From positions 4,790-40,820 of the forward strand of contig CAZOTW010000003.1 in the NCBI GenBank assembly GCA_964582845.1: a stretch of DNA of 36,031 nucleotides, given 5' to 3'. Both the position numbers and the translations under genes were made by a program. The notes beneath the pieces are model-generated. The model made no database searches and was not told where the DNA came from. It saw only the letters and a program-made list of their open reading frames with translations. Shown in pieces: positions 3,596 through 34,395 of this stretch. Numbering within the stretch: position 1 is the first letter of the stretch; the number at the start of each line of letters is the position of its first letter. Source of the stretch: an uncultured Gammaproteobacteria bacterium (lineage in GTDB: Bacteria > Patescibacteriota > Microgenomatia > UBA10105 > UBA927).

Positions 3596-3606
3596 ACCCT
3601 CTCGTT

Positions 3607-4068
3607 TTATCCTTTTAGCGCCACGACGACGCTATCGGCCCAGGAGTTAATTTTGTCCATATTGCCCGTCTGGTCGGAGTAGAATTTATCAATCCGAAGC
3701 GACGGGACAATTAACTTTCCCTTCATGGTCTTGACCAATTCTTCCAGGTGATCGACAGCGCCGCAAAAGTGCTTGTAGGATGAGTCGCCCAACCCGAAAA
3801 TGACAAACGGTTTTCCTTCGACCGTAACCGTTTTAAGTTTTTCCATGAGCGGTAGGAAATCTTCGTGCGGCATACCCTCGTGACCTTCAAAATCCCAACT
3901 CGGTGAACCCATAAGTATCGCGTGTGGAGCCGAAAAATTTTCAATGGTGGTATCGCGTGCTTCTTTCATGGTGACCGAGTGACCCGCTTTGGTCAGCTTG
4001 TCGGCAACCGTTTGAGCAGTCGTCATCGTGGTTCCTGAATTTGTCGCATAAACGATAAGAATATTCAT
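3607..4068 (-). CDS. flavodoxin (short-chain type)
   Basis: MNILIVYATNSGTT phosphate-binding loop, GSPSWDFEG and FGLGDSSY motifs. AAGGAGGGG Shine-Dalgarno sequence upstream on the minus strand. Convergent with rpsG, with only 11 nt between the stops. Confidence 0.85.
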   Translation of the reverse strand: MNILIVYATNSGTTMTTAQTVADKLTKAGHSVTMKEARDTTIENFSAPHAILMGSPSWDFEGHEGMPHEDFLPLMEKLKTVTVEGKPFVIFGLGDSSYKHFCGAVDHLEELVKTMKGKLIVPSLRIDKFYSDQTGNMDKINSWADSVVVALKG

Positions 4069-4171
4069 GGTTTCCCCTCCTTACTCGTATATAGAAATTG
4101 TACACTGGGTTGTTTTACAATAGCAAGCGTAAGTCCCGAGTGTAATCGAGGGACGCGAGAGTTATTTTATT

Positions 4172-4777
4172 ATGAATCAAAGAGTGAAGTCTCATTTCCA
4201 AAAGGCTGACCCGATACTCTTTGGCGTACTCCAGAAAATAGAGAAAAAGGACGAGCTAGTGCCGCGAAAAAGTGATGATTATTTTTCAGATATCTGTCAG
4301 GCAATTATTAATCAACAGCTGTCGGATAAAGCGGGCGCCACAATTTTTAAACGGTTCGTACACTTGTTTCCACATGGGAAAGTGACGCCGCAGAGCCTCA
4401 TGCGATTATCCGATACGCAGATTCGCGCGGTTGGTCCATCGGGAAGCAAGGTACAGTTCCTTAAATCTCTGGCGCGAAGCGTCATAGCAAAAGAAATTGT
4501 TTTTACTGCTCTTGAAACGCTATCCGATGAAGATGTTAGGAAAGAATTAGTGAAGCTTAAAGGAATCGGCCCGTGGACTGCGGAAATGTTTCTTATGTTC
4601 TCGCTCGGGCGGGAAGATGTATTTTCCTATGGCGATTTGGGCTTGAGAAGGGCTATCCAAAAACTTTACAACTTCAAAAAAGAACCAACAAAGCGACAGA
4701 TGGAAAAAGTTACGAATAGGTGGATGCCATATAGGACGTATGCATGTCGCATTCTATGGAGAAGTTTGGAAATATAA
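4172..4777 (+). CDS. HhH-GPD superfamily DNA glycosylase (AlkA / 3-methyladenine glycosylase II-like)
   Basis: LKGIGPWTAEMFLMFSLGREDVFSYGDLGLRRAI, i.e. a helix-hairpin-helix plus Gly/Pro loop and a conserved Asp. Confidence 0.8.
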   Translation: MNQRVKSHFQKADPILFGVLQKIEKKDELVPRKSDDYFSDICQAIINQQLSDKAGATIFKRFVHLFPHGKVTPQSLMRLSDTQIRAVGPSGSKVQFLKSLARSVIAKEIVFTALETLSDEDVRKELVKLKGIGPWTAEMFLMFSLGREDVFSYGDLGLRRAIQKLYNFKKEPTKRQMEKVTNRWMPYRTYACRILWRSLEI

Positions 4778-4800
4778 AAAATGCGGTACAATAGTATTAT

Positions 4801-5160
4801 ATGAAAATTGCTATCTTTCTTCTGTTTCTTGGGCTCGTTACTGTCGTGTTACTTTTTCCTTTCGTCATGAAGGAAAAGGCGTGTTACGAACAATCACAGG
4901 TGGGATTAGATTTTATCGGGTATAGTGTGCCAGCGCGCGGGTGGGACATAACGGAAGTATGTAAACGGCGTGTGGTGGTGCTTGGTACTCTTGAAGAGTG
5001 TATCCACCAGGCAACGAGGTCAGGCGGCCTTTTGACGAAATACACAAATGGCGTGGTACAAGGAGCCGTTTATATCGTCCGGCCCCTCACCAAAGGATTT
5101 GATACCCTGAAAACCGAGCACAATCAAGAGTGCGCGGATTACGAACAGTATCAGATGTAA
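4801..5160 (+). CDS. hypothetical small secreted or membrane-anchored Cys-containing protein
   Basis: N-terminal hydrophobic segment MKIAIFLLFLGLVTVVLLFPF, 4 Cys. A TACAAT box ends 8 nt before the ATG. Confidence 0.45.
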   Translation: MKIAIFLLFLGLVTVVLLFPFVMKEKACYEQSQVGLDFIGYSVPARGWDITEVCKRRVVVLGTLEECIHQATRSGGLLTKYTNGVVQGAVYIVRPLTKGFDTLKTEHNQECADYEQYQM

Positions 5161-5212
5161 ATATCGCGAGTCTACTATGACCGACTGGTTCTATACGATA
5201 CAATAGATCTGT

Positions 5213-6181
5213 ATGCAGCTTAACTGGGTTGATGTAGTGATTATTGCGATTGTTGCATATTCTGCGTTTCGGGGATGGAAGACGGGGCTTGTCCTTCTGT
5301 TTTCGAACCTCATTTCTTTTATTATTGCGTTGTGGCTGGCGATCAAATTCAACGGAGTGGTGAGTGGGTTTCTTGCAGATAAATTTGGCGTTCCCGCTCT
5401 TTGGGCAACGGTTGCCGGGTATATCGTGGTTGGGTTTACTGCCGAGGTAGTGCTTACTGAATTATTTACGTTGATGATCAGAAAAATACCGGATAAATTG
5501 GCGCTATCCTGGGTAAATAATTGGCTCGGCGCATTGGTGTCGGCCGTCAACGGATTTCTCATCGTCGCATTTTTTATTTTAATTATCTCCGTACTGCCTC
5601 TTCGAGGGACCGTGAAAAATGACATTCGCAAGTCTCAGGTTGGGAAATACATTGTGACGCTCGTCGCTACCCATGGCGGACCGTTGCAATCGACCGTGAA
5701 TGAAGTAGGGAAGAAGGCGACAAAATTTTTTACCATAGAACCGGGGTCGAAAGGCAGTCTTACTATAGATGTTGCTCCGAAGGCATCAGACCTCCATGTG
5801 GATTCGAATTCGGAAGCCCAGATGGTGCAACTCGTGAATGCCGAAAGAAAACTAGCTGGCGTGCCTTCGCTCACTGTCGATTCCAAGATCACAGAAGTAG
5901 CCCGAGAGCATAGCCGCGACATGTTTTTGCGGCGCTATTTTTCTCATCTCACGCCGGAAGGGAAGGATGCCGGTACCCGGATGGAAAATGGGGGCGTCGT
6001 GTTCACCCAGGCGGGAGAAAATATTGCTTATACACCGGATTTACTTACCGCGCATCAGGGGCTCATGGATAGCGAAGAGCATCGGAAAAATATTTTAGAC
6101 CCCGAGTTTCATCGAATCGGCATAGGTATTATTTCTACAGACAGCTTCGGCATGATGGTGACCCAGGAATTTGCAAATTGA
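5213..6181 (+). CDS. CvpA-family membrane domain fused to a CAP/SCP (YkwD-like) extracytoplasmic domain
   Basis: N-terminal half has 4 TM helices beginning MQLNWVDVVIIAI..FRGWKTG (CvpA-like). C-terminal part has LVNAERKLAGVP..AREHSRDM..FSHL..GENIAY..HRKNILDPEFHRIGIG (CAP domain). Confidence 0.75.
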   Translation: MQLNWVDVVIIAIVAYSAFRGWKTGLVLLFSNLISFIIALWLAIKFNGVVSGFLADKFGVPALWATVAGYIVVGFTAEVVLTELFTLMIRKIPDKLALSWVNNWLGALVSAVNGFLIVAFFILIISVLPLRGTVKNDIRKSQVGKYIVTLVATHGGPLQSTVNEVGKKATKFFTIEPGSKGSLTIDVAPKASDLHVDSNSEAQMVQLVNAERKLAGVPSLTVDSKITEVAREHSRDMFLRRYFSHLTPEGKDAGTRMENGGVVFTQAGENIAYTPDLLTAHQGLMDSEEHRKNILDPEFHRIGIGIISTDSFGMMVTQEFAN

Positions 6182-6194
6182 TTACTTCACTTGA

Positions 6195-6890
6195 TTAGTT
6201 TCCGCTATTGAGGATGACGGTGGACCCTTTGAAATTGGTTATGGTAAATGGCGTTTCGCCGTGAAACAGCTTAGATCCCTGTGCGTTGACGGTTACATAC
6301 GTGGTAAGGTTTGGCGATGTTGTGATGGGTTGAAAATTCATATCGATGAGCTGAAACGTCTGTGATGGTGCCGTGATACCCGATGATGGTGTAATCGCAA
6401 GTCCCACGTTTATCGTGCCCGTGAGATTCGCCTGACTCGTTGAGCTAAAGGTAAGTGCCGGTGCAAGCGCAGGATTTTTGCTGGTGCTGATGGAAACTAA
6501 TTTCATTTTTGTTTTATCGAAATCAATTCGTATTTGTCCTTGGTCGACAGACGATTCTGCGTTTACCCATAATTGAAGAAGCACCATGGGTTTTGTGCGG
6601 GATTCCGATGGTACGATCATGATATTGGCGCGAGAGTTGCCTGCTTTTGTCACAATATTCTGTGGTTTTTGGATTTGTTGGGCGATGACAAAACCGACAA
6701 CGAGCATCATGACAAACGAGAGTTTCCAGACAAATTGCGTGCGTACGCCACTATCTATTAATCGTTTATACCATGGGGTCGGGACGATGACCGTTTCCGG
6801 TATTTGTTCAAGTATGACTGTGGGAGGTTGAGAGCCTGGTTCTGTATGTTGTGAATCCGTTGACGATGGTGGTTGGTTATGATCGTCCAT
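6195..6890 (-). CDS. hypothetical membrane-anchored protein with a beta-rich extracytoplasmic domain
   Basis: Pro/Ser/Thr-rich N-terminus, a single TM helix (FVWKLSFVMMLVVGFVIAQQI), then a Ser/Thr/Asn-rich domain. No family recognised. Confidence 0.55.
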   Translation of the reverse strand: MDDHNQPPSSTDSQHTEPGSQPPTVILEQIPETVIVPTPWYKRLIDSGVRTQFVWKLSFVMMLVVGFVIAQQIQKPQNIVTKAGNSRANIMIVPSESRTKPMVLLQLWVNAESSVDQGQIRIDFDKTKMKLVSISTSKNPALAPALTFSSTSQANLTGTINVGLAITPSSGITAPSQTFQLIDMNFQPITTSPNLTTYVTVNAQGSKLFHGETPFTITNFKGSTVILNSGN

Positions 6891-7036
6891 AGGTGGCTAC
6901 CTCTATAATATTACTTGTAAATTACTATAGCAACATGTGTCTCCTTTGTCTCAAGAGTGGAAACGGACTATTGAAGCGGATGATATAGTAGTCCACTCAT
7001 TGACTTTTATATCGTAAATATGTTGAACTAGAGAAC

Positions 7037-7119
7037 TGTTAGGGGTGTCCCGAGCTTGTCGAGGGACTGAGATTATACCCTTTAAACCTGATCTGGATTA
7101 TACCAGCGGAGGGAAACAA
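7037..7119 (+). promoter_or_regulatory. TPP (THI-box) riboswitch aptamer
   Basis: UGUUAGGGGUGUCCCGAGCUUGUCGAGGGACUGAGAUUAUACCCUUUAAACCUGAUCUGGAUUAUACCAGCGGAGGGAAACAA. Matches block for block the E. coli thiM aptamer as I recall it (GGGGUGC..CUGAGA..ACCC..ACCUGAUCUGGAUAAUGCCAGCGUAGGGAA). The GGAGGG Shine-Dalgarno sequence lies inside the aptamer and the 3' strand of P1 abuts the ATG. Confidence 0.9.
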
Positions 7120-7635
7120 ATGAGCCAAGAACGCTCCCACATTTTAGAGCCTCGGATTACCAGCCCGTTTCGTAATGAATACAATTTGTATGAGCAAGGT
7201 GTTGCTCTTCTTATTTTTAATAGAGCAGGCAAAATACTATTAGTCAAAGAGACACACGACGACCCTAGGTACGGAAGGACAGTTGGTCAATGGAATATCG
7301 TTACGGAAACAAGGCAATTTGGCGAACGCGTAAAGCCGAACATACAACGAGCAATTGATGAAGAACTCGGAATGGATTACTCACTGTTTATGATTATTCC
7401 CCGAAGCTATCGGGAAACGAACGGGATATACAATAGAGAGATGGGGTACCGGTATAAATATCGATGTGTATGTTTTGTATACGAAGGGGATCCCGATAGA
7501 CCCGCACATGAGGTATTTCACTGTAATTCCGGCGAAATTGCCGGGTATCAGTGGGTTGCGCCGGATGCGTTAGATCTTTATAATATCGAACCTGGCGCGC
7601 GAAAGGTCATTGAATATTATAAAAGTTTTGGTTGA
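7120..7635 (+). CDS. Nudix-family hydrolase-like protein (degenerate Nudix box)
   Basis: Start ATG at 7120 sits 6 nt after GGAGGG. GVALLIFNRAGKILLVKE...WNIVTETRQFGE-RVKPNIQ-RAIDEELGM fits E-x7-R(E/A)UxEExGU. The track start at 7045 reads through the riboswitch. Confidence 0.65.
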   Translation: MSQERSHILEPRITSPFRNEYNLYEQGVALLIFNRAGKILLVKETHDDPRYGRTVGQWNIVTETRQFGERVKPNIQRAIDEELGMDYSLFMIIPRSYRETNGIYNREMGYRYKYRCVCFVYEGDPDRPAHEVFHCNSGEIAGYQWVAPDALDLYNIEPGARKVIEYYKSFG

Positions 7636-7699
7636 CTCTTTTGCCTCGTGGAAGAAGTTTCATTAGTACGCCTTCAGATTCAGGACAACGATAGTATCT

Positions 7700-8344
7700 T
7701 TACTCAGAAATAGGAGCGGGTTCCTTGGCGATTATGGTAAAACTTCCCTCAAGGGAGTCTACGTCACCTATACTACTTTCCATAGAATGAATCGTAGCGG
7801 ATGTTGGATTCTCGATAGACATCATACCGGTGGCTATTCTATAGGCGCTGGGATTTACCAATAAATTATTCAGTCTACGTAAATCTTCGTCGCGTACTTC
7901 TGCTCTCATAAACGGATATGTATACGTGTCGCCAATCTGTTCCCGATGACCGTTTATGGGGCCTTGTCCCTCGACCAATCTTAATAAGTCTACCGTTCTC
8001 TCCCCATGTCGAAGCAGTCCCGCTTCTCTTCGGGCGACGTCCCATCCTTCGCCGTCATGAGGGTCTAATATCTTGGTGGCATAGGTGCTAGAGATCGGGA
8101 GGTTGGTCTGTGTTTTGACTCGTGTTACTTCAATACCATTCTGCTTCGCAATATCGAGGATTTGATTACATAACCTCGTTATATCAGCGCGTAATTCATC
8201 TCGCCCCTCTGGTGTTCTTATGTCCCGGGCTGCACCACAGTTTGTCGCTACGATCCAAAACCGGCCGTATTTTGCTTCTAATGTGGCTGGATCAAGACCT
8301 TTGTCTTTTGGTTCAAAAAATTTTGGCGCTTCTAGTTGTGACAT
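7700..8344 (-). CDS. hypothetical protein
   Basis: 214-aa ORF with ordinary composition, convergent with the Nudix gene. No motif recognised. Confidence 0.55.
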   Translation of the reverse strand: MSQLEAPKFFEPKDKGLDPATLEAKYGRFWIVATNCGAARDIRTPEGRDELRADITRLCNQILDIAKQNGIEVTRVKTQTNLPISSTYATKILDPHDGEGWDVARREAGLLRHGERTVDLLRLVEGQGPINGHREQIGDTYTYPFMRAEVRDEDLRRLNNLLVNPSAYRIATGMMSIENPTSATIHSMESSIGDVDSLEGSFTIIAKEPAPISE

Positions 8345-8429
8345 ATCGATATTGGAAAATCTGCGATTATATTGTTCTAATGGTCCATAGTATACTCATT
8401 CGCCTTTTCATTTGCAATAGATTTCATTT

Positions 8430-8458
8430 TTGCCCCAACTCCCTAAACGTATTATACT
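8430..8458 (+). promoter_or_regulatory. candidate sigma70-type promoter (TTGCCC-N17-TATACT)
   Basis: Hexamers at 8430-8435 and 8453-8458 with 17-nt spacing, 20 nt upstream of the flavodoxin ATG. Confidence 0.4.
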
Positions 8459-8477
8459 TTGGATGAATCCGTTTCCT

Positions 8478-8960
8478 ATGAACATATTAGTCGTTTATGA
8501 TTCCATGTATGGCAATACCAAAGAAATTGCCAAAGCGATTGCGGGTGGGTTTGGAAAATCGGACACCGTGAAGTTGGTGCAGGCCCGTGAAGCGAAACTT
8601 TCGGATCTTCAGTCCCTCGATCTTCTCGTTGTCGGCTCGCCGACACAGGGAGGGAGAGCCACGTCCTCGGTATATGATTTCTTTACCGATATTCCCCAAA
8701 ACGGGCTAAGCGGTGTGGGTGTGGCCGCATTCGATACGCGTTTTGAACCGGAACTCCAAGGGAAAGCACTGCGTCTGGTCATGGGAATTCTGGGATATGC
8801 TGCGACAAAAATCGGAAACTCACTGACCCAAAAAGGCGGCCGCCTCGTCGTCCCCCCGGAGGGCTTTATCGTTCGCGGTAAAGAGGGACCACTTAAAGAA
8901 GGGGAACTCAAACGCGCGGCCACGTGGGCTGCCGCTCTTCGCACGAACAAAAGGGTATGA
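8478..8960 (+). CDS. flavodoxin-fold protein
   Basis: MNILVVYDSMYGNTKEIAKAIAGG.. and VVGSPTQGG are typical flavodoxin motifs. I chose the ATG at 8478 rather than the track start at 8430. Confidence 0.8.
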   Translation: MNILVVYDSMYGNTKEIAKAIAGGFGKSDTVKLVQAREAKLSDLQSLDLLVVGSPTQGGRATSSVYDFFTDIPQNGLSGVGVAAFDTRFEPELQGKALRLVMGILGYAATKIGNSLTQKGGRLVVPPEGFIVRGKEGPLKEGELKRAATWAAALRTNKRV

Positions 8961-9121
8961 TGCTGTAGAGAATGGCTTATAGTTGATTAATATGAGATAA
9001 TACACTGCTCTTTCCAAGAGTATTCATCACCTTCGTAATCGCACGATCGCACATTGATATACGATGAATTTTTGACCTATCGCTACGGAAAAGCGGTTTT
9101 TTCGTTTGGAGGGTTCCATCC

Positions 9122-9352
9122 ATGAAACAGGAAAAACCTGTCCGCAAGGGGCGACGAGGGAGTATTAAAGTGAAATGGGAGGAGTTCTTTATTGGCGCGG
9201 TGCTAATTGGGATTTCAATAATCCTAATTGGCGTAATTTGCAATGCTCTGAATCCCCCGGTCATCGCCACCATGATGGTGATGGTTATCCCTTTTAGCTT
9301 CGCACTGTGGCTTCTTTACCTCGCATATCTATGCGATTTTCATCCGTCGTAA
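9122..9352 (+). CDS. hypothetical small membrane protein (2 TM)
   Basis: GGAGGG lies 8 nt upstream of the ATG. Basic N-terminus followed by two hydrophobic helices. Confidence 0.45.
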   Translation: MKQEKPVRKGRRGSIKVKWEEFFIGAVLIGISIILIGVICNALNPPVIATMMVMVIPFSFALWLLYLAYLCDFHPS

Positions 9353-9573
9353 GGGCCCCACAAAAGCGCGAAATGTCGGCATAACCTTCCTTTTATTGAG
9401 AGAGGCCAGGAGTGTACACGCGCATCACGCGCACTTTGCATTTGCAATCGTACACACACCGGCCCCTCAGTTTTCTTTGATGTGTAGCGCTTACCACACT
9501 CACACGAAGTGCTGAATGGAACTTTCCCGCGCCGCCCTCTGGCCAACCTCATTCCATGTGAGATAATCAGTCC

Positions 9574-10434
9574 ATGAACCTTATTATTCCTCTTCTCCTC
9601 TCCTTTGTTCCCATGATTATGTGGGGGACGATGGATGTTTTGGGCGGACTCCTTGCGCGAAAAGCACCTGCAACAATTGGTTTTTTTACCACACAATTGA
9701 TGGGTCTCCTTATAACACTTACTTTTTTGCCCTTCATTCCGAAACCAACAGTCATAACCATAATTCCTTTATTTCTCCTCGGCATACTTCCCGTATTTTC
9801 ATGGCTTCTGTATTTTAAAGCCGCTCAAGTCACGGATATTTCCATCGTCGGCCCCATATCCCGGGTTGATTTTGTTCTGACAAGTATATTGGGTATGGTA
9901 TTTCTGCAGGAAGCAGCGACCCCGGCGAAATTTATCAGCATCGGTTTGGTATTTGTGGGAAGTGGTCTATTGTCTCTGGACTGGTCAAAGCTTACTCATA
10001 AAAAAATTCCGAACTTAACGGTCGGTGCTGTCCTTGCCTTTTTCTGCGCGGTTGCTGTCGGCTTGCAGCTTTTCTTGATGGCGCCGGAATCCCGTATAAA
10101 CGGATGGTATTACACGTCATTATTTTTACGTATCGCCGCCACCGCGTATGCAGGACTATGCGTCGTTCTGTTTAAGCAAACGAAAACGTTATTTCAATCG
10201 TATTTACCTTGGAAATTGATAGCTGGCGTGGCATTGGTGGACGTTATCGGATTGAGTGTTTATAACTTCACTGTCATGCGGTATCCGGTATCGTATGTGT
10301 CCGTTATCGTGTCCTGCGCGTCCTTCGTTACCATCCTTATCGCCCGCTTATGGTTAAAGGAAAAACTCCGTTCGCTCCAATACGTCGGAATTTTTCTGAT
10401 GATATTAGGCATTATCAGTTTACAAATCTCCTGA
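9574..10434 (+). CDS. EamA/DMT-family transporter
   Basis: About 10 predicted TM helices in two similar halves, with an N-terminal ..MIMWGTMDV.. typical of EamA. TGaGATAAT ends 6 nt before the ATG. Confidence 0.8.
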   Translation: MNLIIPLLLSFVPMIMWGTMDVLGGLLARKAPATIGFFTTQLMGLLITLTFLPFIPKPTVITIIPLFLLGILPVFSWLLYFKAAQVTDISIVGPISRVDFVLTSILGMVFLQEAATPAKFISIGLVFVGSGLLSLDWSKLTHKKIPNLTVGAVLAFFCAVAVGLQLFLMAPESRINGWYYTSLFLRIAATAYAGLCVVLFKQTKTLFQSYLPWKLIAGVALVDVIGLSVYNFTVMRYPVSYVSVIVSCASFVTILIARLWLKEKLRSLQYVGIFLMILGIISLQIS

Positions 10435-10447
10435 ATCGATTCAGGAG
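10428..10447. repeat. perfect 20-bp palindrome spanning the EamA stop codon
   Basis: CTCCTGAATC|GATTCAGGAG. It directly abuts repeat R1. Confidence 0.9.
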
Positions 10448-10515
10448 AGTAAATAGTTCAATTATTCGAATAATTGAACTGTCTGTTTTCCGTGCACCTC
10501 GGAGGTGAGTAAAAC
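10448..10515 (+). repeat. island repeat R1 (26-bp perfect palindrome + GC hairpin)
   Basis: AGTAAAT-AGTTCAATTATTC|GAATAATTGAACT (10455-10480), then a T-rich spacer, then CCGTGCACCTCgGAGGTGaGTAAAAC. Confidence 0.9.
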
Positions 10516-10552
10516 GTGGACCGCCTCGCTTCGCGAACAAAAAGACACATAA
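10514..10552 (+). pseudogene. relic 3' end of a flavodoxin-like gene (copy 1)
   Basis: ACGTGGaCcGCCtCgCTTCGC--GAACAAAAaG aligns with flavodoxin 8922-8955. In frame it reads ..KTWTASLREQKDT*. No upstream ORF. Confidence 0.5.
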
Positions 10553-10690
10553 GAACAGGTGCGAACCTAATCCACCCGGAGGGTGGCAGACATTGGTCTT
10601 GCGCTGGCTCTGGACTACGGGTTCTTATCCCTTTACCTCGTAAGCAGAAAAAAATAGATCGGTCGTGCAAAACGAAAAGTTGATTTATGA

Positions 10691-10699
10691 TGATATAAT
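10691..10699 (+). promoter_or_regulatory. extended -10 promoter element TGATATAAT (cassette 1)
   Basis: Perfect TGnTATAAT. The same 9-mer recurs at 12605-12613 in front of cassette 2. Confidence 0.5.
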
Positions 10700-10713
10700 A
10701 TTCGCGATTAGTT

Positions 10714-11229
10714 GTGCTATCTGAATTTTATTCTTCTATGACTTCGCTACCTGATTATAAGGATAGTTTTGCAGAGGCGTACTTATTTGCTATTTCTGCT
10801 GCAGCAGGGCTACCGATTGAGAGATCGACTCGTAGAACAGATAACCTTGGAATTGATCTAACTTTGAGTAAAAAGAACGATTCGGTATCCCCAGGGTCTC
10901 AAATTAACATACAATTAAAAGGAGTTGCAGAAAATAGCGCCTCAATGTTTAAAGAGGATGAAAGATCGATAAGTTATAATTTCCATAATCCTTGTAATCC
11001 AATAGGGGCACATTATCTAGTTGTAGTGCGATTGCCGAACGATGGAACACCTGAAGATTGGTTAACCTTGACTGAAAAAGAGTTGATAATAAGAAAGTGT
11101 GCATTCTATACAAAAATTGTGCCAAAGATGAAATCAGGTTTTGTTAAAATACCAAAAACTCAGCTATTGACTCATAATAATCTCCCGACACTGTTTCCTA
11201 GTGCTATAGACTTGGTAAATAATTTGTAA
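10714..11229 (+). CDS. DUF4365-like PD-(D/E)xK (restriction-endonuclease fold) protein
   Basis: E21 (SFAEAYLF), D43/D48 (RTDNLGIDLTL) and Q67-L-K69 (INIQLKG) occur in the order and spacing of the PD-(D/E)xK core. GTG start at 10714, alternative ATG at 10738. AT-rich. Confidence 0.6.
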   Translation: MLSEFYSSMTSLPDYKDSFAEAYLFAISAAAGLPIERSTRRTDNLGIDLTLSKKNDSVSPGSQINIQLKGVAENSASMFKEDERSISYNFHNPCNPIGAHYLVVVRLPNDGTPEDWLTLTEKELIIRKCAFYTKIVPKMKSGFVKIPKTQLLTHNNLPTLFPSAIDLVNNL

Positions 11230-11232
11230 AAT

Positions 11233-12390
11233 ATGAATATAATTTCAATAAGTAGTTTTCAAGATGTATTCCAGAGAATAGGTTTGATTAAAAGCAAATC
11301 TAAATCAGGTAACTATGAAATTTGGAAATCAAGGGAACGCGACGATCTTTTTACAGTACTACCTTTAGCAAAAAGTAGTCATGACTATGAGTACTATCAG
11401 GAAAAAAACGTTGAGTTTATTAATTATTTACTGGGGTTAGTGTACAACGAAGAAAACAAAGAGGAGATATTGAGTCAATTGAATGGATACAATTATAAAC
11501 TAATAAATAGAATACAAACAAAAGAACCATATTCACAAGAAACAGTCCCTTATAGGTTAGCAGATGTACTAATTAACAAAAATGTTAACGCGTTTCTATA
11601 TTTCTTTAATCAGAAAACAAAAGGAAAGATTCCTCTGGGTATCAAAAATATAAGATTGAACCACACGCAGCATGGTAGCTTTGTTATACCAGTGTCGATA
11701 GAATTAGTTGGTCAAGAAACTTTTCCGACAATCCCTTCGCAAATAAATAAAACCCTAAGAGACTATTTGGATGTTGTAGATCTTATTTCTGGTTTAGATA
11801 TGTCCAACGAAGAAAAATTTGCGTCTTCAGTTTTGGAGAACGACTTGGATTCGACATTAGTAAGGAATTTTATTGATAGTACTTCGAGTGTAGCTTTTTA
11901 TAAAAAAGAATATAGCGATTTTATTCAAAACGTTTCAATATCAGGAAGAAGTAACCCAATACTTGATTATCAACTTGAGAGAAAATATAAGAATTTTCCA
12001 GAAGTGAGTTTGGCCCAATTACAACCAGCTTCGGTGGAGTTTTTTGAATATCTTGAACGAAAAGAAACAGAGCGGGATGAGCAAGCAATATATGCAGTTA
12101 ATACAACAATCGAAGTTATTGTTGACGCTTTAGATAGGGGTGGCAAAGTAAAATTTAGTGTAGTGGCGGTAGGCGCACAAAGGATTGATAAGCCTTTTAA
12201 GGCGTCTATAGATGAACAGCCGCAAGTAAGGCTAAATGAGTTTGCAAGTGCTTTTATTACTGGTGAAGTGCTTGAGCTTAATGGAGATATTCGAAAGCCA
12301 AAACATAAGTTGGGGAAAATATTGGTTCATGAACTTAAACGCAAGAATCCTAAATTGACGCTTCTTGATGATATTACAGAAAAAAAGTAG
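11233..12390 (+). CDS. hypothetical protein, orphan partner of the nuclease-like gene
   Basis: 385-aa ORF starting 3 nt after the upstream stop. No P-loop, methyltransferase, helicase or HTH motif recognised. Confidence 0.6.
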   Translation: MNIISISSFQDVFQRIGLIKSKSKSGNYEIWKSRERDDLFTVLPLAKSSHDYEYYQEKNVEFINYLLGLVYNEENKEEILSQLNGYNYKLINRIQTKEPYSQETVPYRLADVLINKNVNAFLYFFNQKTKGKIPLGIKNIRLNHTQHGSFVIPVSIELVGQETFPTIPSQINKTLRDYLDVVDLISGLDMSNEEKFASSVLENDLDSTLVRNFIDSTSSVAFYKKEYSDFIQNVSISGRSNPILDYQLERKYKNFPEVSLAQLQPASVEFFEYLERKETERDEQAIYAVNTTIEVIVDALDRGGKVKFSVVAVGAQRIDKPFKASIDEQPQVRLNEFASAFITGEVLELNGDIRKPKHKLGKILVHELKRKNPKLTLLDDITEKK

Positions 12391-12481
12391 TGTTTGTTAG
12401 ATTGCTAAACAATCTCGTTATTTTCTCCACATTTCTCTTCAACGCCTCTTTCGTTTTGAGAAACCCGAGGGAGTGAAAAGC

Positions 12482-12553
12482 AGTAAATAGTTCGATTATT
12501 CGAATAATCGAACTATTTGGAATTTTTTCCGTGCACCTCGGAGGTGCGTAAAC
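12482..12553 (+). repeat. island repeat R2 (34-bp perfect palindrome + GC hairpin)
   Basis: AAATAGTTCGATTATTC|GAATAATCGAACTATTT (12485-12518), then GGAATTTTTTCC, then GTGCACCTCgGAGGTGCGTAAAC. Flanked by identical 13-mers AAACCCGAGGGAG at 12461-12473 and 12554-12566. Confidence 0.9.
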
Positions 12554-12604
12554 AAACCCGAGGGAGCGCGGGATTTCTTTTTGGAGCGTGCTACAGCCTT
12601 CCTG

Positions 12605-12613
12605 TGATATAAT
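12605..12613 (+). promoter_or_regulatory. extended -10 promoter element TGATATAAT (cassette 2, leaderless geometry)
   Basis: Perfect TGnTATAAT ending 7 nt before the ATG at 12621. Confidence 0.5.
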
Positions 12614-12620
12614 TAAGTTA

Positions 12621-13124
12621 ATGCCAGAAATAAACCAAGTTAACGACGAAAATACTCAACCATCTTCCTTACCTGAGGCTTTTATTCCCGAGGTTGATTT
12701 AGTAGGAGTATCAGTTGACCCCAAGAAAGCCGCAGAATTTGTAGAAACACCTGGTATCAAACAAGCGCTCGCACAAGCTGGAACATTTCTTGGAGGTGCA
12801 GGAGTGACAATGGCTGGATTATCTGACTTTATCAACGTTACTATGAACCAACCCACAGGTCCTGAACGAACTACTGCAATGATAACAACTTTTTTAATAA
12901 TGAATATAGGTATAGTTATGCTTTGTTCATCGAAAAATGTAACTGAAATGTTTCAACATGGTTTACTGCGAATCCAATCTATTGCTTCAAGAGATAAAGA
13001 TATTGTTACAGGAGAAGGCGAACTTACTGCAAAGGGGCGACTGGCTCTTTCCCCTGATAAAGAGCCGGAATTATCTTTAGAGCAGTTATTAGCACGATCA
13101 AACGGGAATCAACAACAAAAATGA
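12621..13124 (+). CDS. hypothetical 2-TM membrane protein
   Basis: I chose the ATG at 12621 because it has -10 geometry; the track start at 12588 is a GTG. Hydrophobic segments AGTFLGGAGVTMAGLSDFI and AMITTFLIMNIGIVMLCSS, with a polar Gln-rich C-terminus. Confidence 0.55.
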   Translation: MPEINQVNDENTQPSSLPEAFIPEVDLVGVSVDPKKAAEFVETPGIKQALAQAGTFLGGAGVTMAGLSDFINVTMNQPTGPERTTAMITTFLIMNIGIVMLCSSKNVTEMFQHGLLRIQSIASRDKDIVTGEGELTAKGRLALSPDKEPELSLEQLLARSNGNQQQK

Positions 13125-13483
13125 CCGTAGAAGAACAATATATTATTTTAGAGAATATTCTTTATGAGTTAGGGTATGATGATGAAAAAATACTTGCGTT
13201 TCGACGGACTTTTTTTGAACGTCTCATTTTAAGATTAGGAAAAACCACGTTAATGATATTTCCTGTTACTCAGCAAGCTGCTTTTTTTGATTTATTAAAA
13301 AAAAGCGAAACAATTCCAGAAGATATTAATGCTTTCTTTAAAAGAAATAATATTTCTCAAACAACAGTTTCTTTATTAGACAAAGAATTTACCATGCTAC
13401 TTGAAGAAACAAAACAAAATATCTTAAAAGTTGTTACAGAATCTCAAAAGAAAATCATTGAAGAGAAATTTAATTCAGCTTAA
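13121..13483 (+). CDS. hypothetical small helical protein
   Basis: 120 aa. Start overlaps the upstream stop (ATGA), implying translational coupling. No family recognised. Confidence 0.55.
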   Translation: MTVEEQYIILENILYELGYDDEKILAFRRTFFERLILRLGKTTLMIFPVTQQAAFFDLLKKSETIPEDINAFFKRNNISQTTVSLLDKEFTMLLEETKQNILKVVTESQKKIIEEKFNSA

Positions 13484-13567
13484 GATTTTTTTATTACATC
13501 ACTACTGACTAAGGCAAACTCAAAGTTTGAGTCCTATCGGGGTTAAAGTAGTTATAAGAATATATAC

Positions 13568-13631
13568 AGTTTAATTATTCGAATAATTGAACTATTAGGA
13601 ATTTTCCGTGCACCTCGGAGGTGCGTAAAAC
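13568..13631 (+). repeat. island repeat R3 (palindrome with one mismatch + GC hairpin)
   Basis: AGTTtAATTATTC|GAATAATTGAACT (13568-13593), then ATTAGGAATTTTCC, then GTGCACCTCgGAGGTGCGTAAAAC. Confidence 0.9.
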
Positions 13632-13671
13632 TTGGGCTACCGCTCTTCGTACGAAGAAAAGGGAAGAATGA
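13632..13671 (+). pseudogene. relic 3' end of a flavodoxin-like gene (copy 2)
   Basis: TGGGCTaCCGCTCTTCGtACGAAgAAAAGGG matches flavodoxin 8925-8955 at 28 of 31 positions. In frame it reads ..KTWATALRTKKREE*, versus TWAAALRTNKRV* in the intact gene. Confidence 0.6.
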
Positions 13672-13675
13672 GGAT

Positions 13676-13710
13676 AGTATATACGTAGTATATATCAAGT
13701 ATATACTACG
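13676..13710. repeat. three phased AGTATATA 8-mers (11-bp period) overlapping an 11-bp inverted repeat
   Basis: 8-mers at 13676, 13687 and 13698. Inverted repeat CGTAGTATATA-tcaag-TATATACTACG at 13684-13710 covers a TATACT box (13702-13707) 14 nt before the ATG at 13722. Confidence 0.85.
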
Positions 13711-13721
13711 CAGTTTTCGAC

Positions 13722-14024
13722 ATGATGCAGAAAAAGGTTACATGGTACACTATAAATGTGAAATTCTTGCGCCCTCGATTGGTTAACATCTTGCCTACTC
13801 TCATTCTTTTGTTTCTCCTCATCCTCTGGGAACACGCGGCGTTGCCGACCGGCGGGTATGTATTGGTGCGCTATGTGCCGGTTTTTGTATTCGTCGACTA
13901 CGTAAAGCTTCAGTATTACGGTGGCGCGTTACTTTTTATCGGGTTTTTCCTGATTGTATATGTGGTGGTTTCGTTGGGCGTTGCCATACTTTCGAGCATT
14001 CTTCGGCACATAAAAACTCCATAA
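13722..14024 (+). CDS. hypothetical membrane protein
   Basis: 100 aa with 2-3 strongly hydrophobic helices (ILPTLILLFLLILW, GGALLFIGFFLIVYVVVSLGVAIL). Confidence 0.5.
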   Translation: MMQKKVTWYTINVKFLRPRLVNILPTLILLFLLILWEHAALPTGGYVLVRYVPVFVFVDYVKLQYYGGALLFIGFFLIVYVVVSLGVAILSSILRHIKTP

Positions 14025-14086
14025 TCGATGTAGAACTTTTTTCGCACGGGGATAACATGGTGCACCTTTGCTATACTTGAGGCAGG

Positions 14087-15070
14087 ATGAGTAACGATCT
14101 TGCTATACTTCTTGCCCGAACATATCTTCAAATCCCCTTTGATCAGTTTCTCAAAGAAGTGAAAACTCAATATCCGCGACTTGGGGAGATAACGCAGTTT
14201 CAACCGATCACGGAAGGATACGAAGATGCCAATATATTGCTCGTCACAGAGACAGGAACGTACGTCATTAAAATATTCTCGAAAGACAGGAGTGTAGAAA
14301 ATGTTAGAAGTTACATCCACATCCTTGAGGAAGCGCAAAAAATTGGCGTACCGGTAACCCGGCTTGTTCCCGGGACAAAAGGTAGCATAAGTTTCGCGGC
14401 GGAAAATACCAAGACCCCGTATTGCATTGCGGAGTTTTTTGACGGGAATGATTTTCAGGAAAAATCTCCGACGATGGATGATATGGTTCGCGTCGCTTCC
14501 TATCTTGCGAAACTGAATACGCTTCGTTTTCCGATGACGGAATATTATGACTCATGGGGAAATAAAAATCTTGCAGTTGAGTACGAAAAAAATAAGGAGA
14601 GTCTCACACGCGAGCAGGCAGAATTGATTGCGCCGGTTGTTGAGAGCTTCAAGAAGCTGGATTTTTCCAAATTCAGCACATCAATTATTCATGGTGACAT
14701 GCAGCGAAAACACGTGCTGAAAAACGCTAAAGGCGAATACTGCATTTTGGATTTCGGGTGTGCCGCGAACGGTCCGAAGGTCATCGAATTATCGACGCAT
14801 CTTGCGTGGTTTTGTTTAGGGGAAGATACGTGGAGTGCGCGGAAAGATATTATGAATAAGGTAGTTGAGGAGTATACATCGGTGCATCACCTGACGAAAT
14901 ACGAACTTGATGCGCTACCCATACTCATGCGTGCTTGCTATGCAGCATATTATCTGAAAACCTGTGTATTGATTGGTGACGGAAACACGAGTCAGGAAAC
15001 GGCCCAATGGAATAAAACGTCTCTTCAAATGCTTCGTTTAGCCGCGCTTGCGGGAAGAGGGGAATTCTAG
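14087..15070 (+). CDS. APH/choline-kinase/homoserine-kinase-II family phosphotransferase
   Basis: IIHGDMQRKHVL catalytic loop followed by ILDFGCA (DFG-type metal-binding motif). The usual Asn at D+5 is His here. Confidence 0.8.
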   Translation: MSNDLAILLARTYLQIPFDQFLKEVKTQYPRLGEITQFQPITEGYEDANILLVTETGTYVIKIFSKDRSVENVRSYIHILEEAQKIGVPVTRLVPGTKGSISFAAENTKTPYCIAEFFDGNDFQEKSPTMDDMVRVASYLAKLNTLRFPMTEYYDSWGNKNLAVEYEKNKESLTREQAELIAPVVESFKKLDFSKFSTSIIHGDMQRKHVLKNAKGEYCILDFGCAANGPKVIELSTHLAWFCLGEDTWSARKDIMNKVVEEYTSVHHLTKYELDALPILMRACYAAYYLKTCVLIGDGNTSQETAQWNKTSLQMLRLAALAGRGEF

Positions 15071-15076
15071 TACAAT
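15048..15076 (+). promoter_or_regulatory. candidate promoter (TTGCGG-N17-TACAAT)
   Basis: Hexamers at 15048-15053 and 15071-15076, spanning the kinase stop codon. Confidence 0.35.
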
Positions 15077-15099
15077 ATGAGCGTTGAAACACGGCTAAT

Positions 15100-15125
15100 G
15101 CGCCCGGAGTGGCGCTTTTTATTTT
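15100..15125 (+). terminator. intrinsic-terminator-like hairpin abutting the fusA ATG
   Basis: GCGCC-cggagt-GGCGC followed by TTTTTATTTT. The fusA ATG begins at the very next base. Confidence 0.55.
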
Positions 15126-21997: not shown

Positions 21998-22351
21998 ATG
22001 GAATATCAGGCAACAGCAAAATATATGCGAATAAGTACCAGAAAGCTTCGGCTTGTTGCCGATAGTATTCGTGCGCTGACGCCTGCTCATGCGTTGATAC
22101 AACTTACGCTTATGCCAAAAGCTGCAGCGCTTCCGCTTCGGCAGGTTGTCGCGTCGGCCGTGGCCAATGCCAAGCAAAAACAGGCACATGAGGAATCTTT
22201 GAAGTTTAAAATTATCGAGGTTATGGGGGGAGCCGGGATGAAGCGGTGGCACGCGGTGTCCAAAGGACAGGCACACCCATACAAAAAACGCATGACACAC
22301 GTGAGAATTGTGTTAACGGATGAAGGAAAGGGGATCAGCGATAAGAAATAA
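21998..22351 (+). CDS. rplV: 50S ribosomal protein L22
   Basis: ..ISTRKLRLVADSIR.. and operon position. Confidence 0.94.
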   Translation: MEYQATAKYMRISTRKLRLVADSIRALTPAHALIQLTLMPKAAALPLRQVVASAVANAKQKQAHEESLKFKIIEVMGGAGMKRWHAVSKGQAHPYKKRMTHVRIVLTDEGKGISDKK

Positions 22352-22412
22352 GTGATAAGAAATACATTTTTTGACTTATCACTTCTCACTTATTACGTAT
22401 CACTAATACCAT

Positions 22413-23096
22413 ATGGGACAAAAAATAAATCCAAGAGGTTTTCGTGTCGGGACGGTTTTTACCTGGGGGTCCCGATGGTTTGCTGATAAAAAACATTATA
22501 AAGGGTTAGTTCTTGAGGATGCTAAGCTTCGAAAAGAACTCTTTGGAAAGCTTAAATCAGCAGGGCTTGCGCAGGTAGTTATCGAGCGCTCTATCAATAA
22601 AATTAAAGTAACGCTTTTTGTGTCGCGTCCGGGTATCGTGATTGGGAGGGGAGGAAGCGGGCTTGAAGAATTAAAGAAATTCATTGAAAAAAAACTAGCG
22701 TTGTATCAAGAATGCACTGATCCGTATGAGGTAAGGAGAGTGGCTCAGAAAGAAACAGGACGACTGAAAGTGGAACTCGCGGTTGAACCGGTGAAAGAGC
22801 CCAATCTGAACGCCTACCTCGTTGCGACGAATATTGCGGATCAATTGATCCGCCGTATGCCGCATAAACGCATATGCAATCAGGCTTTGGAGCGGGTGAT
22901 GACAGCGGGAGCAAAGGGAGTAAAAATTCTTCTTTCCGGTCGTATTGCCGGAGCAGAAATCGCACGACGGGAAAAATACCATGCAGGGACCGTGCCATTA
23001 TCAACGATTCGGGAGGAAGTGGATTTCGCTTCTGTTCCGTCACTGACAAAATCCGGATATATCGGGATAAAAGTGTGGATATGTAGAAAAAGTTAG
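22413..23096 (+). CDS. rpsC: 30S ribosomal protein S3
   Basis: MGQKINPRGFRVG.. KH domain, ..GRIAGAEIARRE.Y..G.VPL.T. Confidence 0.96.
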   Translation: MGQKINPRGFRVGTVFTWGSRWFADKKHYKGLVLEDAKLRKELFGKLKSAGLAQVVIERSINKIKVTLFVSRPGIVIGRGGSGLEELKKFIEKKLALYQECTDPYEVRRVAQKETGRLKVELAVEPVKEPNLNAYLVATNIADQLIRRMPHKRICNQALERVMTAGAKGVKILLSGRIAGAEIARREKYHAGTVPLSTIREEVDFASVPSLTKSGYIGIKVWICRKS

Positions 23097-23125
23097 TTAG
23101 TTATTAGTTACTTCGTTACTTAGAA

Positions 23126-23144
23126 AACCAACTAACCAAGTAAC
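23126..23144 (+). repeat. 19-nt intercistronic motif AACCAACTAACCAAGTAAC (copy before rplP)
   Basis: Identical 19-mer at 34377-34395. Ends 4 nt before the rplP ATG and forms the 3' arm of an imperfect hairpin. Confidence 0.9.
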
Positions 23145-27744: not shown

Positions 27745-29034
27745 ATGAACAAATTGTTGTCGCCGCTTATCGCCAGTTGGAAGTCTCCTGAACTTCGACG
27801 GAAGATTCTTCTCACCGCCTTTCTTTTTGTCGTTTTTCGGATTTTTGCCCATATTCCGATTCCCGGTGTTGATACGCAAAAACTTGCGGCGCTTTTTTCC
27901 CAAAATCAATTTTTAGGACTTCTGGATATATTTTCCGGCGGGACGCTCGTAAATTTTTCTATTCTTGCGTTAGGACTCAACCCGTATATCAATGCATCCA
28001 TTATCCTTCAGCTTCTTACGATCGTATTTCCGCAACTGGAGGAGCTTTCCAAAGAAGGAGAATACGGTCGGGAAAAGATCAACCAGTATACGCGGTTTAT
28101 CACAGTGCCACTTGCTGCCGTCCAGTCTATCGGTATGTTTGCACTCCTCAAAAATCAGGGAATTATCGGGTCGGTTGATCCTTTTTCGCTTATTACCATT
28201 GTCGTGACGATGACAGCAGGCACACTGTTTGCCATGTGGCTTGGTGAGCTTATCACCGAGTATGGCATAGGCAATGGCATATCTCTTCTCATTTTCGCCG
28301 GTATCGTGGGTAGATTACCCGTTGTTTTTGGTCAGACGGCGACCACGATGACGGCGGAGTATATGACAAATGCTCTTACATTTGGTGTACTTGCTATTGC
28401 CGTTATCGGGGCCACCGTATTTGTCAATGAAGCCGTTCGTCGTATTACGGTGCACTATGCGCGTCGCATCCGTGGTAACAAAATATACGGCGGGCAAACA
28501 TCATACCTGCCGCTTCGAGTGAATCAAGCTGGGGTGATTCCGATAATCTTTGCTGTTTCTCTCGTGCTTCTTCCGTCTTTGGTTGGAGGATTTTTACAGC
28601 AGGTACATAATCCCGTCGTTGGGAATATCGGGAAATTGTTAAGTAATATTTTTAATCCAAACGGCATTTCGTATAATGTCATCTATTTTTTCCTCGTCAT
28701 CGGATTTACGTATTTCTATACCGCTATCACATTTAACCCCTCAAAAATTTCTCAAGAAATTCAAAAGTACGGGGGATTTATACCTGGTATCCGTCCCGGC
28801 ACGCCGACGGCAAATTACCTGAACTATATTTTAACCCGTATCACTCTTGCCGGTGCCCTCTTTTTGGGAGTCATTGCGATATTGCCGTCTCTTGCCAAGC
28901 AGGCCTCGGGGGTTTCGACGCTTCTTGTCGGCGGTACGGGAGTCCTTATCGTCGTATCTGTGGTACTGGAGACAGTGAAAGCGTTAGAAGCACAATTGGT
29001 GATGCGTAACTACGAAGGATTCCTAAAAGAATGA
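27745..29034 (+). CDS. secY: preprotein translocase subunit SecY
   Basis: 10-TM protein with ..[19 protein letters not shown].. and GEYGR.KI.QYTR. Confidence 0.97.
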
Positions 29035-29122
29035 CCAATGCTAAATGTCCAATGGCCAATGGAAAGCGGTGTAGATGTTTATTATTTAGCATTTATCATT
29101 TAGCATTTGGCATTTAATTTCT

Positions 29123-32233: not shown

Positions 32234-32315
32234 TTCGTTGGTTAGTTAGTTACTTGGTTACTTCGTAAAAATGCCAAGTAACAAATTAACCAAATAACAA
32301 ACTAACAATTTACGT

Positions 32316-34311: not shown

Positions 34312-34376
34312 ACCGTTAGTTAGCAACCCGCGTTACTTGGTTATTTAGCAACGCAAAAAGAACGTTTTTACTAAGT

Positions 34377-34395
34377 AACCAACTAACCAAGTAAC
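34377..34395 (+). repeat. 19-nt intercistronic motif AACCAACTAACCAAGTAAC (copy before rplQ)
   Basis: Identical to 23126-23144. Ends 5 nt before the rplQ ATG. Confidence 0.9.

Follow-up and report, generated by a model that had tools for sequence, protein, structure and literature searches.

A locally repeated, structured element at the junctions of foreign-composition gene modules in a Candidate Phyla Radiation genome

Introduction

How does a small bacterial genome come to hold a run of foreign genes, separated by copies of a single structured repeat, in the middle of an operon that is normally contiguous? To our knowledge, little is known of how bacteria of the Candidate Phyla Radiation (CPR) gain accessory genes such as phage-defence systems. 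CPR genomes are about 1 Mb in size and contain few recognisable mobile elements. The locus described here bears on this question. It lies in a stretch of 36,031 nucleotides (nt), hereafter the window, taken from contig CAZOTW010000003.1 (forward strand, positions 4,790 to 40,820) of assembly GCA_964582845.1, which was deposited under the name of an uncultured Gammaproteobacteria bacterium and is placed by GTDB in the Patescibacteriota. Between rpsG and fusA, the window carries a 3-kb foreign island that consists of a candidate defence gene pair and an orphan gene pair, and whose junction repeats record its assembly. The repeat, which we call R, is present in three copies (R1, R2 and R3).

Two questions are considered: (i) what kind of element R is; and (ii) how the same unit came to stand beside unrelated gene modules. 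A preliminary description of the locus likened it to a chromosomal integron array or a recombination hotspot, and gave a reused bidirectional terminator as the alternative. We conclude that R is a genuine, locally repeated, structured junction element that bounds horizontally acquired modules in a CPR genome. On present evidence the locus is a new example of an already known kind of feature, and it is not an integron.

Results

Three copies of a structured repeat

The R unit is about 70 nt long and has a constant layout: a perfect palindrome of 26-34 nt is followed by a T-rich spacer and then by an invariant hairpin rich in guanine and cytosine (the GC hairpin). All three copies are on the forward strand. 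In R1 (core 10448-10515) the palindrome spans 10455-10480, the spacer is GTCTGTTTT and the GC hairpin occupies 10495-10507. The R2 core (12482-12553) has its palindrome at 12485-12518, perfect over 34 nt as the preliminary description had stated, and its GC hairpin at 12533-12547. In R3 (core 13568-13631) the corresponding positions are 13568-13593 and 13610-13624. The palindromes have the form of inverted arms of 10-15 bp around a TCGA or TTCGAA centre, and their stems are without bulged or extrahelical bases; the sole deviation is one G.T pair in R3.

Scans confirmed the three copies at the positions first reported. The invariant 18-mer CCGTGCACCTCGGAGGTG occurs exactly three times in the window versus 0.01 expected from shuffled sequence, and the 26-nt palindrome likewise has three occurrences (0, 2 and 1 mismatches) where none is expected. 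The copies begin 13 nt (R1), 91 nt (R2) and 84 nt (R3) after the upstream stop codon, each within one base of the distance given previously (14, 90 and 85 nt). A covariance model was built from the three copies and run with its filters off; together with motif scans of the window and the rest of the 43-kb contig, it located R at module boundaries only, and always in the same orientation.

Pairwise identity among the copies is 86-93%. Every difference is private to one copy and no mosaicism is seen; R1, for example, carries private substitutions (including an A at 10508) and a 5-nt deletion. Because the differences are private, R1, R2 and R3 are separate loci and not duplicates created in assembly, and they have therefore diverged independently from one ancestor.

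The preliminary description had proposed folding as a check, and both hairpins of R are predicted to form as RNA and as DNA, with z-scores of -2 to -9 relative to shuffled sequences (-2 to -5 for the RNA folds). It had also read a paired change in R2, A>G on the left of the palindrome matched by T>C on the right, as a sign of selection on base pairing. The paired change is present, and in R3 a C>T substitution leaves a G.U pair (G.T in DNA) on the forward strand only. The covariation score of the three copies, which reflects one doubly changed pair and one wobble change, was however reached by 292 of 500 column shuffles, and with three sequences the paired change is without statistical weight as evidence for selection on pairing. 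In our view, a long DNA palindrome can also gain symmetric changes through hairpin-templated correction.

Two further features of the repeat are recorded here. A perfect 22-nt palindrome, TCTCCTGAATCGATTCAGGAGA, at 10427-10448 spans the stop codon of the gene preceding R1 and abuts R1. In the GC hairpin (taken as 10494-10508 in R1), CACCTC, similar to the 16S anti-Shine-Dalgarno sequence, is paired with GGAGGTG, which resembles a strong Shine-Dalgarno sequence; 10 nt past the GGAGG comes a GTG (R1) or a TTG (R3). We considered whether the hairpin sequesters a Shine-Dalgarno sequence ahead of a small open reading frame (ORF), and dropped the idea: the reading frames in question, of 57 and 18 codons, show no relationship, and R2 lacks a start codon.

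Copies of a flavodoxin 3′ end beyond R1 and R3

Both R1 and R3 are extended, past the terminal GTAAAAC of the R core, by about 33 nt that match the final 13 codons of a flavodoxin gene lying 1.5 kb upstream. That gene is intact (8478-8960, forward strand by gene call; 160 aa; Pfam Flavodoxin_1, E = 3e-12). Its own 3′ end, T0, corresponds to about the last 11 codons (TWAAALRTNKR) at 8922-8954, with the full tail match reaching 8962. The copy directly after R1, T1 (10514-10544), is decayed and matches T0 at 26 of 33 positions with a 2-nt gap, and the copy after R3, T3 (13630-13670), matches at 29 of 33; both are on the forward strand. R1 and R3 meet their tails at an identical junction, GTAAAAC/NTGG.

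A BLAST alignment of 13633-13663 with 8925-8955 gave 90% identity (E = 1e-6), and a repeat search likewise grouped T0 and T3 in one family. T3 still translates as TWATALRTKKREE up to a stop codon, and the flavodoxin gene ends in TWAAALRTNKRV before its own stop. T1 and T3 are less similar to each other (23/33) than either is to T0, which is expected if T0 is the constrained functional copy and T1 and T3 are relics decaying independently. When the window was scanned with the covariance model, no R core was found upstream of T0. Flavodoxin homology may extend further upstream through the GC hairpin (SEVRK compared with GELKRAA), although the likeness is suggestive only.

Each tail also contains a small palindrome of the form TTCG(N0-2)CGAA, located at 8936-8949 in T0, 10529-10536 in T1 and 13644-13657 in T3. 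The T3 palindrome has no mismatch across its 14 nt (TCTTCGTACGAAGA), and at the centre of the motif lies the 2-nt indel that sets T1 apart from T0 and T3.

A 13-nt direct repeat around R2

At R2, BLAST self-comparison revealed an exact 13-nt direct repeat, AAACCCGAGGGAG, on the forward strand. The left copy (12461-12473) is followed by an 80-nt insertion (12474-12553) comprising 8 nt, TGAAAAGC, and the R2 core, whose palindrome is flagged as terminator-like on both strands. The right copy (12554-12566) abuts the end of R2 and continues into CGCGGGATTTCTTTTT; this supplies a split terminator-like hairpin with its right arm and T-run. Removing the insertion together with one repeat copy joins GAGAAACCCG to CGGGATTTCTTTTT and produces a terminator-like hairpin after the gene that precedes R2 (ORF B, described below). 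The reconstructed hairpin has a predicted energy of -15.5 kcal/mol, which is not better than that of shuffled sequences (z = -0.7), so that the word terminator at this site is a reading and not a result.

A flanking direct repeat like that of R2 arose in 6 of 20,000 random placements in the window. The best flanking repeats of R1 and R3 are 5 and 7 nt long and are not adjacent to the element. Neither the flavodoxin tails after R1 and R3 nor the 13-nt repeat around R2 had been seen in the preliminary description, and an origin by recombination or insertion gains support from both.

The modules and their genes

Between T0 and R1 stands a gene for an EamA-family transporter (9574-10434; Pfam EamA with two repeats, E = 1.9e-23). 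R1 is followed by module 1 (10714-12390), which contains ORF A (10714-11229), encoding a DUF4365 nuclease, and ORF B (11233-12390). R2 separates it from module 2 (12621-13483), in which ORF C (12621-13124) and ORF D (13121-13483) overlap at stop and start. All of these genes are on the forward strand. The guanine-plus-cytosine (GC) content is 31-32% for ORFs A and B, about 40% for ORF C and about 30% for ORF D, compared with about 46% elsewhere. R1 with T1 and R3 with T3 thus form direct repeats that bound 3.1 kb of DNA of foreign composition (31-40% GC versus about 46% in the host), and the earlier observation that structured repeats occupy every boundary of these modules holds. By sequence reading, putative extended -10 boxes precede ORF A (TGATATAAT, 10691-10699) and ORF C (TGTGATATAAT, 12603-12613).

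Module 1 matches the PADLOC candidate defence system PDC-M02, ORF A to PDC-M02A (1.8e-20) and ORF B to PDC-M02B (1.8e-5); ORF A is a DUF4365 protein of PD-(D/E)XK type. The nearest homologue of ORF B (54%) occupies, together with a DUF4365 partner, one end of a prophage-like contig that also encodes a large serine recombinase, and another homologue (42%) is found in a defence island with a reverse transcriptase and genes resembling a type III restriction-modification system. The covariance model detected no R-like repeat at either of these loci. On the prophage-like contig, which also has genes for a terminase small subunit and DnaB, the ORF A/B homologues are at one end and the recombinase is at the other (positions 399-2051 and 9261-10856).

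Of the module 2 genes, ORF C is an orphan and ORF D almost one. ORF C matched only itself among 5.8 billion proteins, ORF D had four weak matches besides itself among 1.84 billion representatives, and neither matched Pfam, PHROG or PADLOC. Downstream of T3, a perfect 11-nt inverted repeat with a 5-nt loop (CGTAGTATATA / TATATACTACG, 13684-13710) lies just 5′ of a 100-aa ORF at 13722 and has the look of an operator.

Genomic setting and assembly support

The window is 99.9% identical to MFIZ01000012.1 of GCA_001779035.1, a genome of Candidatus Gottesmanbacteria bacterium RBG_13_45_10 (Microgenomates, CPR) from Rifle aquifer sediment. The gene order is rpoC, rpsL, rpsG, about 11.5 kb of accessory genes, fusA, tuf and the S10, spc and alpha ribosomal clusters; that is, the str operon is split by accessory genes between rpsG and fusA (3596-15125). 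The closest relative, a closed genome of 1.22 Mb that is 63% identical in APH, has the same split. It shares a minus-strand flavodoxin, HhH-GPD, CvpA/CAP and the APH-fusA arrangement, and its other accessory content differs. Because the relative combines the same split and a partly shared backbone with different content, the rpsG-fusA stretch is a lineage-specific variable region within a normally contiguous operon. By gene comparison and covariance model, the loci of the nearest relatives retain the APH-fusA backbone, and EamA, the second flavodoxin, ORFs A-D and R are all absent from them.

In the sister assembly MFIZ01000012.1, R2 and R3 are unchanged, and a scaffold gap of 471 Ns takes the place of window positions 9875-10538, in which lie the whole of R1 and the 3′ part of EamA. 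An independent reassembly from the European Nucleotide Archive (ENA) covers 10482-11411 and reproduces the right half of R1 with its private A at 10508; the contig breaks at 10482, just past the R1 palindrome.

Other structured elements occur in the window. A thiamine pyrophosphate riboswitch at 7031-7131 (Rfam RF00059, 73.6 bits) lies at the start of a 196-aa ORF (7045-7635), which is called shorter in a Logan contig (171 aa, Pfam NUDIX). A second family of AT-rich intergenic hairpins, built on GTTAGTTAGTTACTTGG and its complement, is found between ribosomal protein genes at 23092-23144, 32241-32306 and 34371-34395; the GTTAGTTAGTTACTTGG motif has 9 matches versus 0.08 expected, and the hairpins at 32228 and 34400 have the stem base AAATAGTT/AACTATTT in common with R. 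Further long AT-rich hairpins are predicted by RNA folding at 22331-22410 (between L22 and S3, -18.7 kcal/mol) and 29030-29114 (between secY and adk, -26.3 kcal/mol).

Searches for further copies

The covariance model found no additional R in the window, the rest of the 43-kb contig, the relatives' loci or the loci of the module-1 homologues. Exact scans with the 18-mer gave 38 matches in GTDB species representatives and 55 in JGI metagenome contigs, all in sequence of 56-78% GC and without the flanking context of R. Neither half of R was found in IMG/VR, BLASTN of the island against phage and plasmid collections gave no match, and Rfam returned nothing at R either at the gathering threshold or at E<=5. 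The GTDB, JGI and IMG/VR collections may not include the host genome, and the statement that there are three copies only holds for the 43-kb contig. The preliminary description had counted a lack of further copies against its recombination reading; none was found, a point of little weight given that the collections may exclude the host.

Discussion

We suggest, tentatively and at somewhat less than an even chance, that att-type junctions were left behind when elements, whose integrase is now gone, integrated one after another at the flavodoxin gene's 3′ end, and that R is the element-side arm of those junctions. The reading is favoured because the R core in all three copies directly precedes a sequence that recurs upstream as a direct repeat. 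By analogy with known islands, such a pattern is the signature of elements that target a gene 3′ end and accumulate there in tandem. Copies of the gene end stand in the repeat at T1 and T3 (26-29 of 33 positions identical to T0), the flavodoxin ORF itself is intact, and the lack of an R copy before T0 fits an attL side. Also in its favour are the restriction of R to module boundaries in a single orientation, the low GC content between T1 and R3, the PDC-M02 match of ORFs A and B with homologues in a prophage-like contig and a defence island, and the lack of the island in relatives. The repeats, the tails, the 13-nt duplication, the foreign composition and the lack of the island in relatives are observations; integration as the cause, a protein-binding role of the palindrome and activity as a terminator are inferred.

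In the proposed scenario, each incoming element would have brought its own copy of the last ~13 flavodoxin codons and so kept the gene intact (T0). Older 3′-end copies would have been displaced downstream, T1 and then T3, each beside the conserved arm of its element, which is the R core. The resulting order would be flavodoxin-T0, EamA module, R1-T1, ORFs A-D, R3-T3 and host genes. R2 may be a third junction of the R arm, formed at a secondary target (the 13-nt AAACCCGAGGGAG, within the loop of the putative terminator of ORF B), with nearly all of the element since deleted; alternatively, the arm may have been copied in by itself. The 26-34 bp perfect palindrome would be a likely binding site for a recombinase dimer, and crossover would have occurred near the GTAAA(A)C boundary of R and T rather than at the palindrome centre. 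With no recombinase detected in cis, the modules would either be fixed or be movable in trans only, as has been suggested for cis-mobilisable elements. The palindrome and T-tract now probably also terminate or insulate transcription between modules that have their own putative extended -10 promoters.

Several observations weigh against integration at the flavodoxin gene. R2 lacks a flavodoxin tail, and only 80 nt lie between the two copies of its 13-nt repeat, so that it resembles a small self-contained insertion more than an island junction. The sequences 3′ of T0 and of T1, which would be the P′ arms, are unrelated. The EamA segment has a host-like GC content, and only the window's own assembly gives its join to the R1 palindrome. 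Neither the tested unassigned ORFs nor the precomputed Pfam hits of the contig genes revealed an integrase or other recombinase; with none detected beside any junction, the locus is compatible only with a decayed or trans-mobilised state. With one locus, three R copies and a nearest relative at 63% in APH, no empty, hybrid or circular-junction site was observed. The odd, MITE-like form of R2 (MITE, miniature inverted-repeat transposable element) and the dependence on a single locus weaken the case.

The form of R2 leads directly to another explanation, which we consider rather doubtful: that the R core is a non-autonomous mobile repeat of about 80 nt, akin to repetitive extragenic palindromic (REP) elements, one that copied itself into three intergenic sites, with the R1 and R3 tails arising from a single later segmental duplication or from a preferred target. 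R2 is indeed a self-standing insertion of 80 nt, located in a hairpin and flanked by an exact 13-nt duplication; the copies share 86-93% identity, with copy-private differences; and the host has another repeated hairpin family (GTTAGTTAGTTACTTGG at 23.1, 32.2 and 34.3 kb), in which two members and R have the stem base AAATAGTT/AACTATTT in common. R is, however, without terminal inverted repeats on reading of its sequence, and R1 and R3 have no flanking duplication, their best repeats being the non-adjacent ones of 5 and 7 nt. All three copies fall within 3.2 kb and none in the other ~40 kb of the contig, R1 and R3 have an identical junction with a 33-nt gene fragment, and no transposase was detected in the contig gene data. 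It is also unlikely that R amounts to no more than a reused terminator or insulator (a hairpin rich in AT, with A- and T-tracts and a stabilising GC hairpin), spread by local duplication or gene conversion and without a role in recombination. The preliminary description was reasonable in raising a terminator, given the R2 palindrome that is flagged as terminator-like on both strands. Every R lies 13-91 nt past the last stop codon of a co-oriented module and 5′ of the putative extended -10 box of the next, the RNA folds are more stable than shuffles (z of -2 to -5), the R3 substitution retains a G.U pair on the forward strand only, and long AT-rich intergenic hairpins are common in the host genome. 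In the terminator scan, R2 passed on both strands, but R1 and R3, with just two or three G-C pairs in their stems, fell short on that count, the T-run of R3 begins 9 nt past the stem, and the GC hairpin has no T-tract on either strand. A terminator does not account for the same unit of 70-110 nt at three unrelated modules, for the gene fragment that accompanies R, or for R2 lying inside another terminator-like hairpin with a 13-nt duplication. A terminator role is compatible with any origin of R, but alone it leaves the spread of R unexplained.

Could the palindrome itself be the site of exchange? A lox-, dif- or attC-like cassette site, in which a recombinase encoded elsewhere crosses over within the palindrome and shuffles the modules, seems to us very improbable. 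The palindrome does have the form of a simple recombinase site (arms of 10-15 bp around TCGA or TTCGAA), and the layout is cassette-like and includes a defence system, as in the chromosomal integrons of bioRxiv 10.1101/2024.07.02.601686. A regular-expression search of 10380-13760 on both strands found no pair of attC cores, RYYYAAC (R″)...GTTRRRY (R′), and no single core inside any R. The stems are perfect with zero extrahelical bases, the modules have their own putative promoters, and no other copies turned up in the collections scanned. The palindrome arms are of the G/C type on both sides in R2 and of the A/T type in R1 and R3, and the lack of hybrid sites leaves crossover at the palindrome centre unsupported. 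The dif sites of Xer recombinases have an 11-6-11 structure with XerC and XerD arms of the form ...ATAA N6 TTAT.... The inner arm ends of R read TTAT...ATAA, the reverse of dif, and the best arm match to this consensus is 4 of 11, which speaks against a dif or pdif site. Identity as an integron attC is ruled out by the missing core motifs, the perfect stems and the lack of any IntI or attC cluster detected on the contig. The comparison with integrons and Vibrio cholerae repeat (VCR) arrays is therefore not supported, given also the modules' own putative extended -10 boxes and the lack of a detected integrase; the accompanying remarks that R is not a canonical attC and that the window has no recombinase were borne out by the regular-expression scan and by the ORF and Pfam searches. 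A broader version, an undescribed cassette system of CPR bacteria with its integrase in trans, in which a host or phage recombinase binds the palindrome and moves small promoter-bearing modules, defence systems among them, into and out of the split-str hotspot, strikes us as quite improbable; as part of the same reading, such a system would be a functional analogue of integrons and pdif modules that is unrelated to them in sequence.

That the arrangement is an artefact of assembly, at least at R1, from a repeat near the read length is hardly credible. The gap of 471 Ns over 9875-10538 in the sister assembly and the break of the ENA reassembly inside R1 at 10482 are what could suggest it. The private substitutions and 5-nt deletion of R1 cannot, however, derive from reads of R2 or R3, the right half of R1 and its downstream flank were independently reproduced, the EamA ORF is complete with both Pfam repeats, and R2 and R3 are identical in two assemblies.

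Elements that integrate at gene 3′ ends offer the closest parallels to the att-type junctions that we favour. In Streptomyces turgidiscabies, the 674-kb island PAISt has attL, attI and attR as palindromic direct repeats at the 3′ end of bacA, with an 8-bp palindrome and a tyrosine recombinase that is present and experimentally active; homologues of PAISt have become fixed through erosion of int and the att sites (PMC4057263). As at the R locus, one internal and two flanking palindrome-bearing direct repeats divide the island, and the target is the 3′ end of a protein gene. The R locus, which is known from its sequence alone, differs in its 26-34 bp palindrome within a structured unit of ~70 nt, in its 3-kb island and in having no recombinase detected. 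The tandem ssrA islands of Dehalococcoides are bounded by ssrA 3′-end copies, some are without integration genes, and a conserved element-derived motif lies just 5′ of each repeat and is absent before the gene's own copy (PMC3146451). In R the corresponding motif would stand before T1 and T3 but not T0, as in those islands and in cis-mobilisable accretion elements. The Dehalococcoides target is the transfer-messenger RNA gene, with a 20 bp repeat, a serine-recombinase module in many islands and dozens of examples across strains (PMC3146451), whereas the R locus has a flavodoxin target and a single example.

Sites of the attC type, in VCR arrays and in clusters of attC sites lacking integron-integrases (CALINs), are also structured repeats of ~60-130 nt after each short cassette, and integron cassettes can encode anti-phage systems, including a DUF4365 protein (bioRxiv 10.1101/2024.07.02.601686). 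R differs from them in having no R″/R′ cores, no extrahelical bases and no imperfect palindrome over the whole site, in its modules with putative promoters, in the lack of IntI and in its absence from the other genomes scanned. REP sequences, bacterial interspersed mosaic elements (BIMEs) and MITEs (reviewed in PMC3184786) are, like R, short hairpin-forming intergenic repeats, and R2 is flanked by what resembles a target-site duplication, although 13 nt is unusually long for a MITE; R is unlike them in its lack of terminal inverted repeats, in its three clustered known copies and in the gene fragment that two of these carry. Bidirectional intrinsic terminators share with R a hairpin that is framed by A- and T-tracts and follows the final gene of a transcription unit. 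The R stem is unusually long and AT-rich for such a terminator, with a minimal loop, is accompanied by a GC hairpin and a gene fragment, and is reused after unrelated modules.

Finally, we consider what R may mean for the biology of these bacteria. A single locus in one population limits its general importance, and should R prove to be no more than a terminator or local repeat, the finding would be an ordinary one. If instead R is the arm of att-type junctions, the 3′ end of a protein gene would be an integration hotspot in this CPR lineage, and the arm sequence could help to find the missing recombinase.

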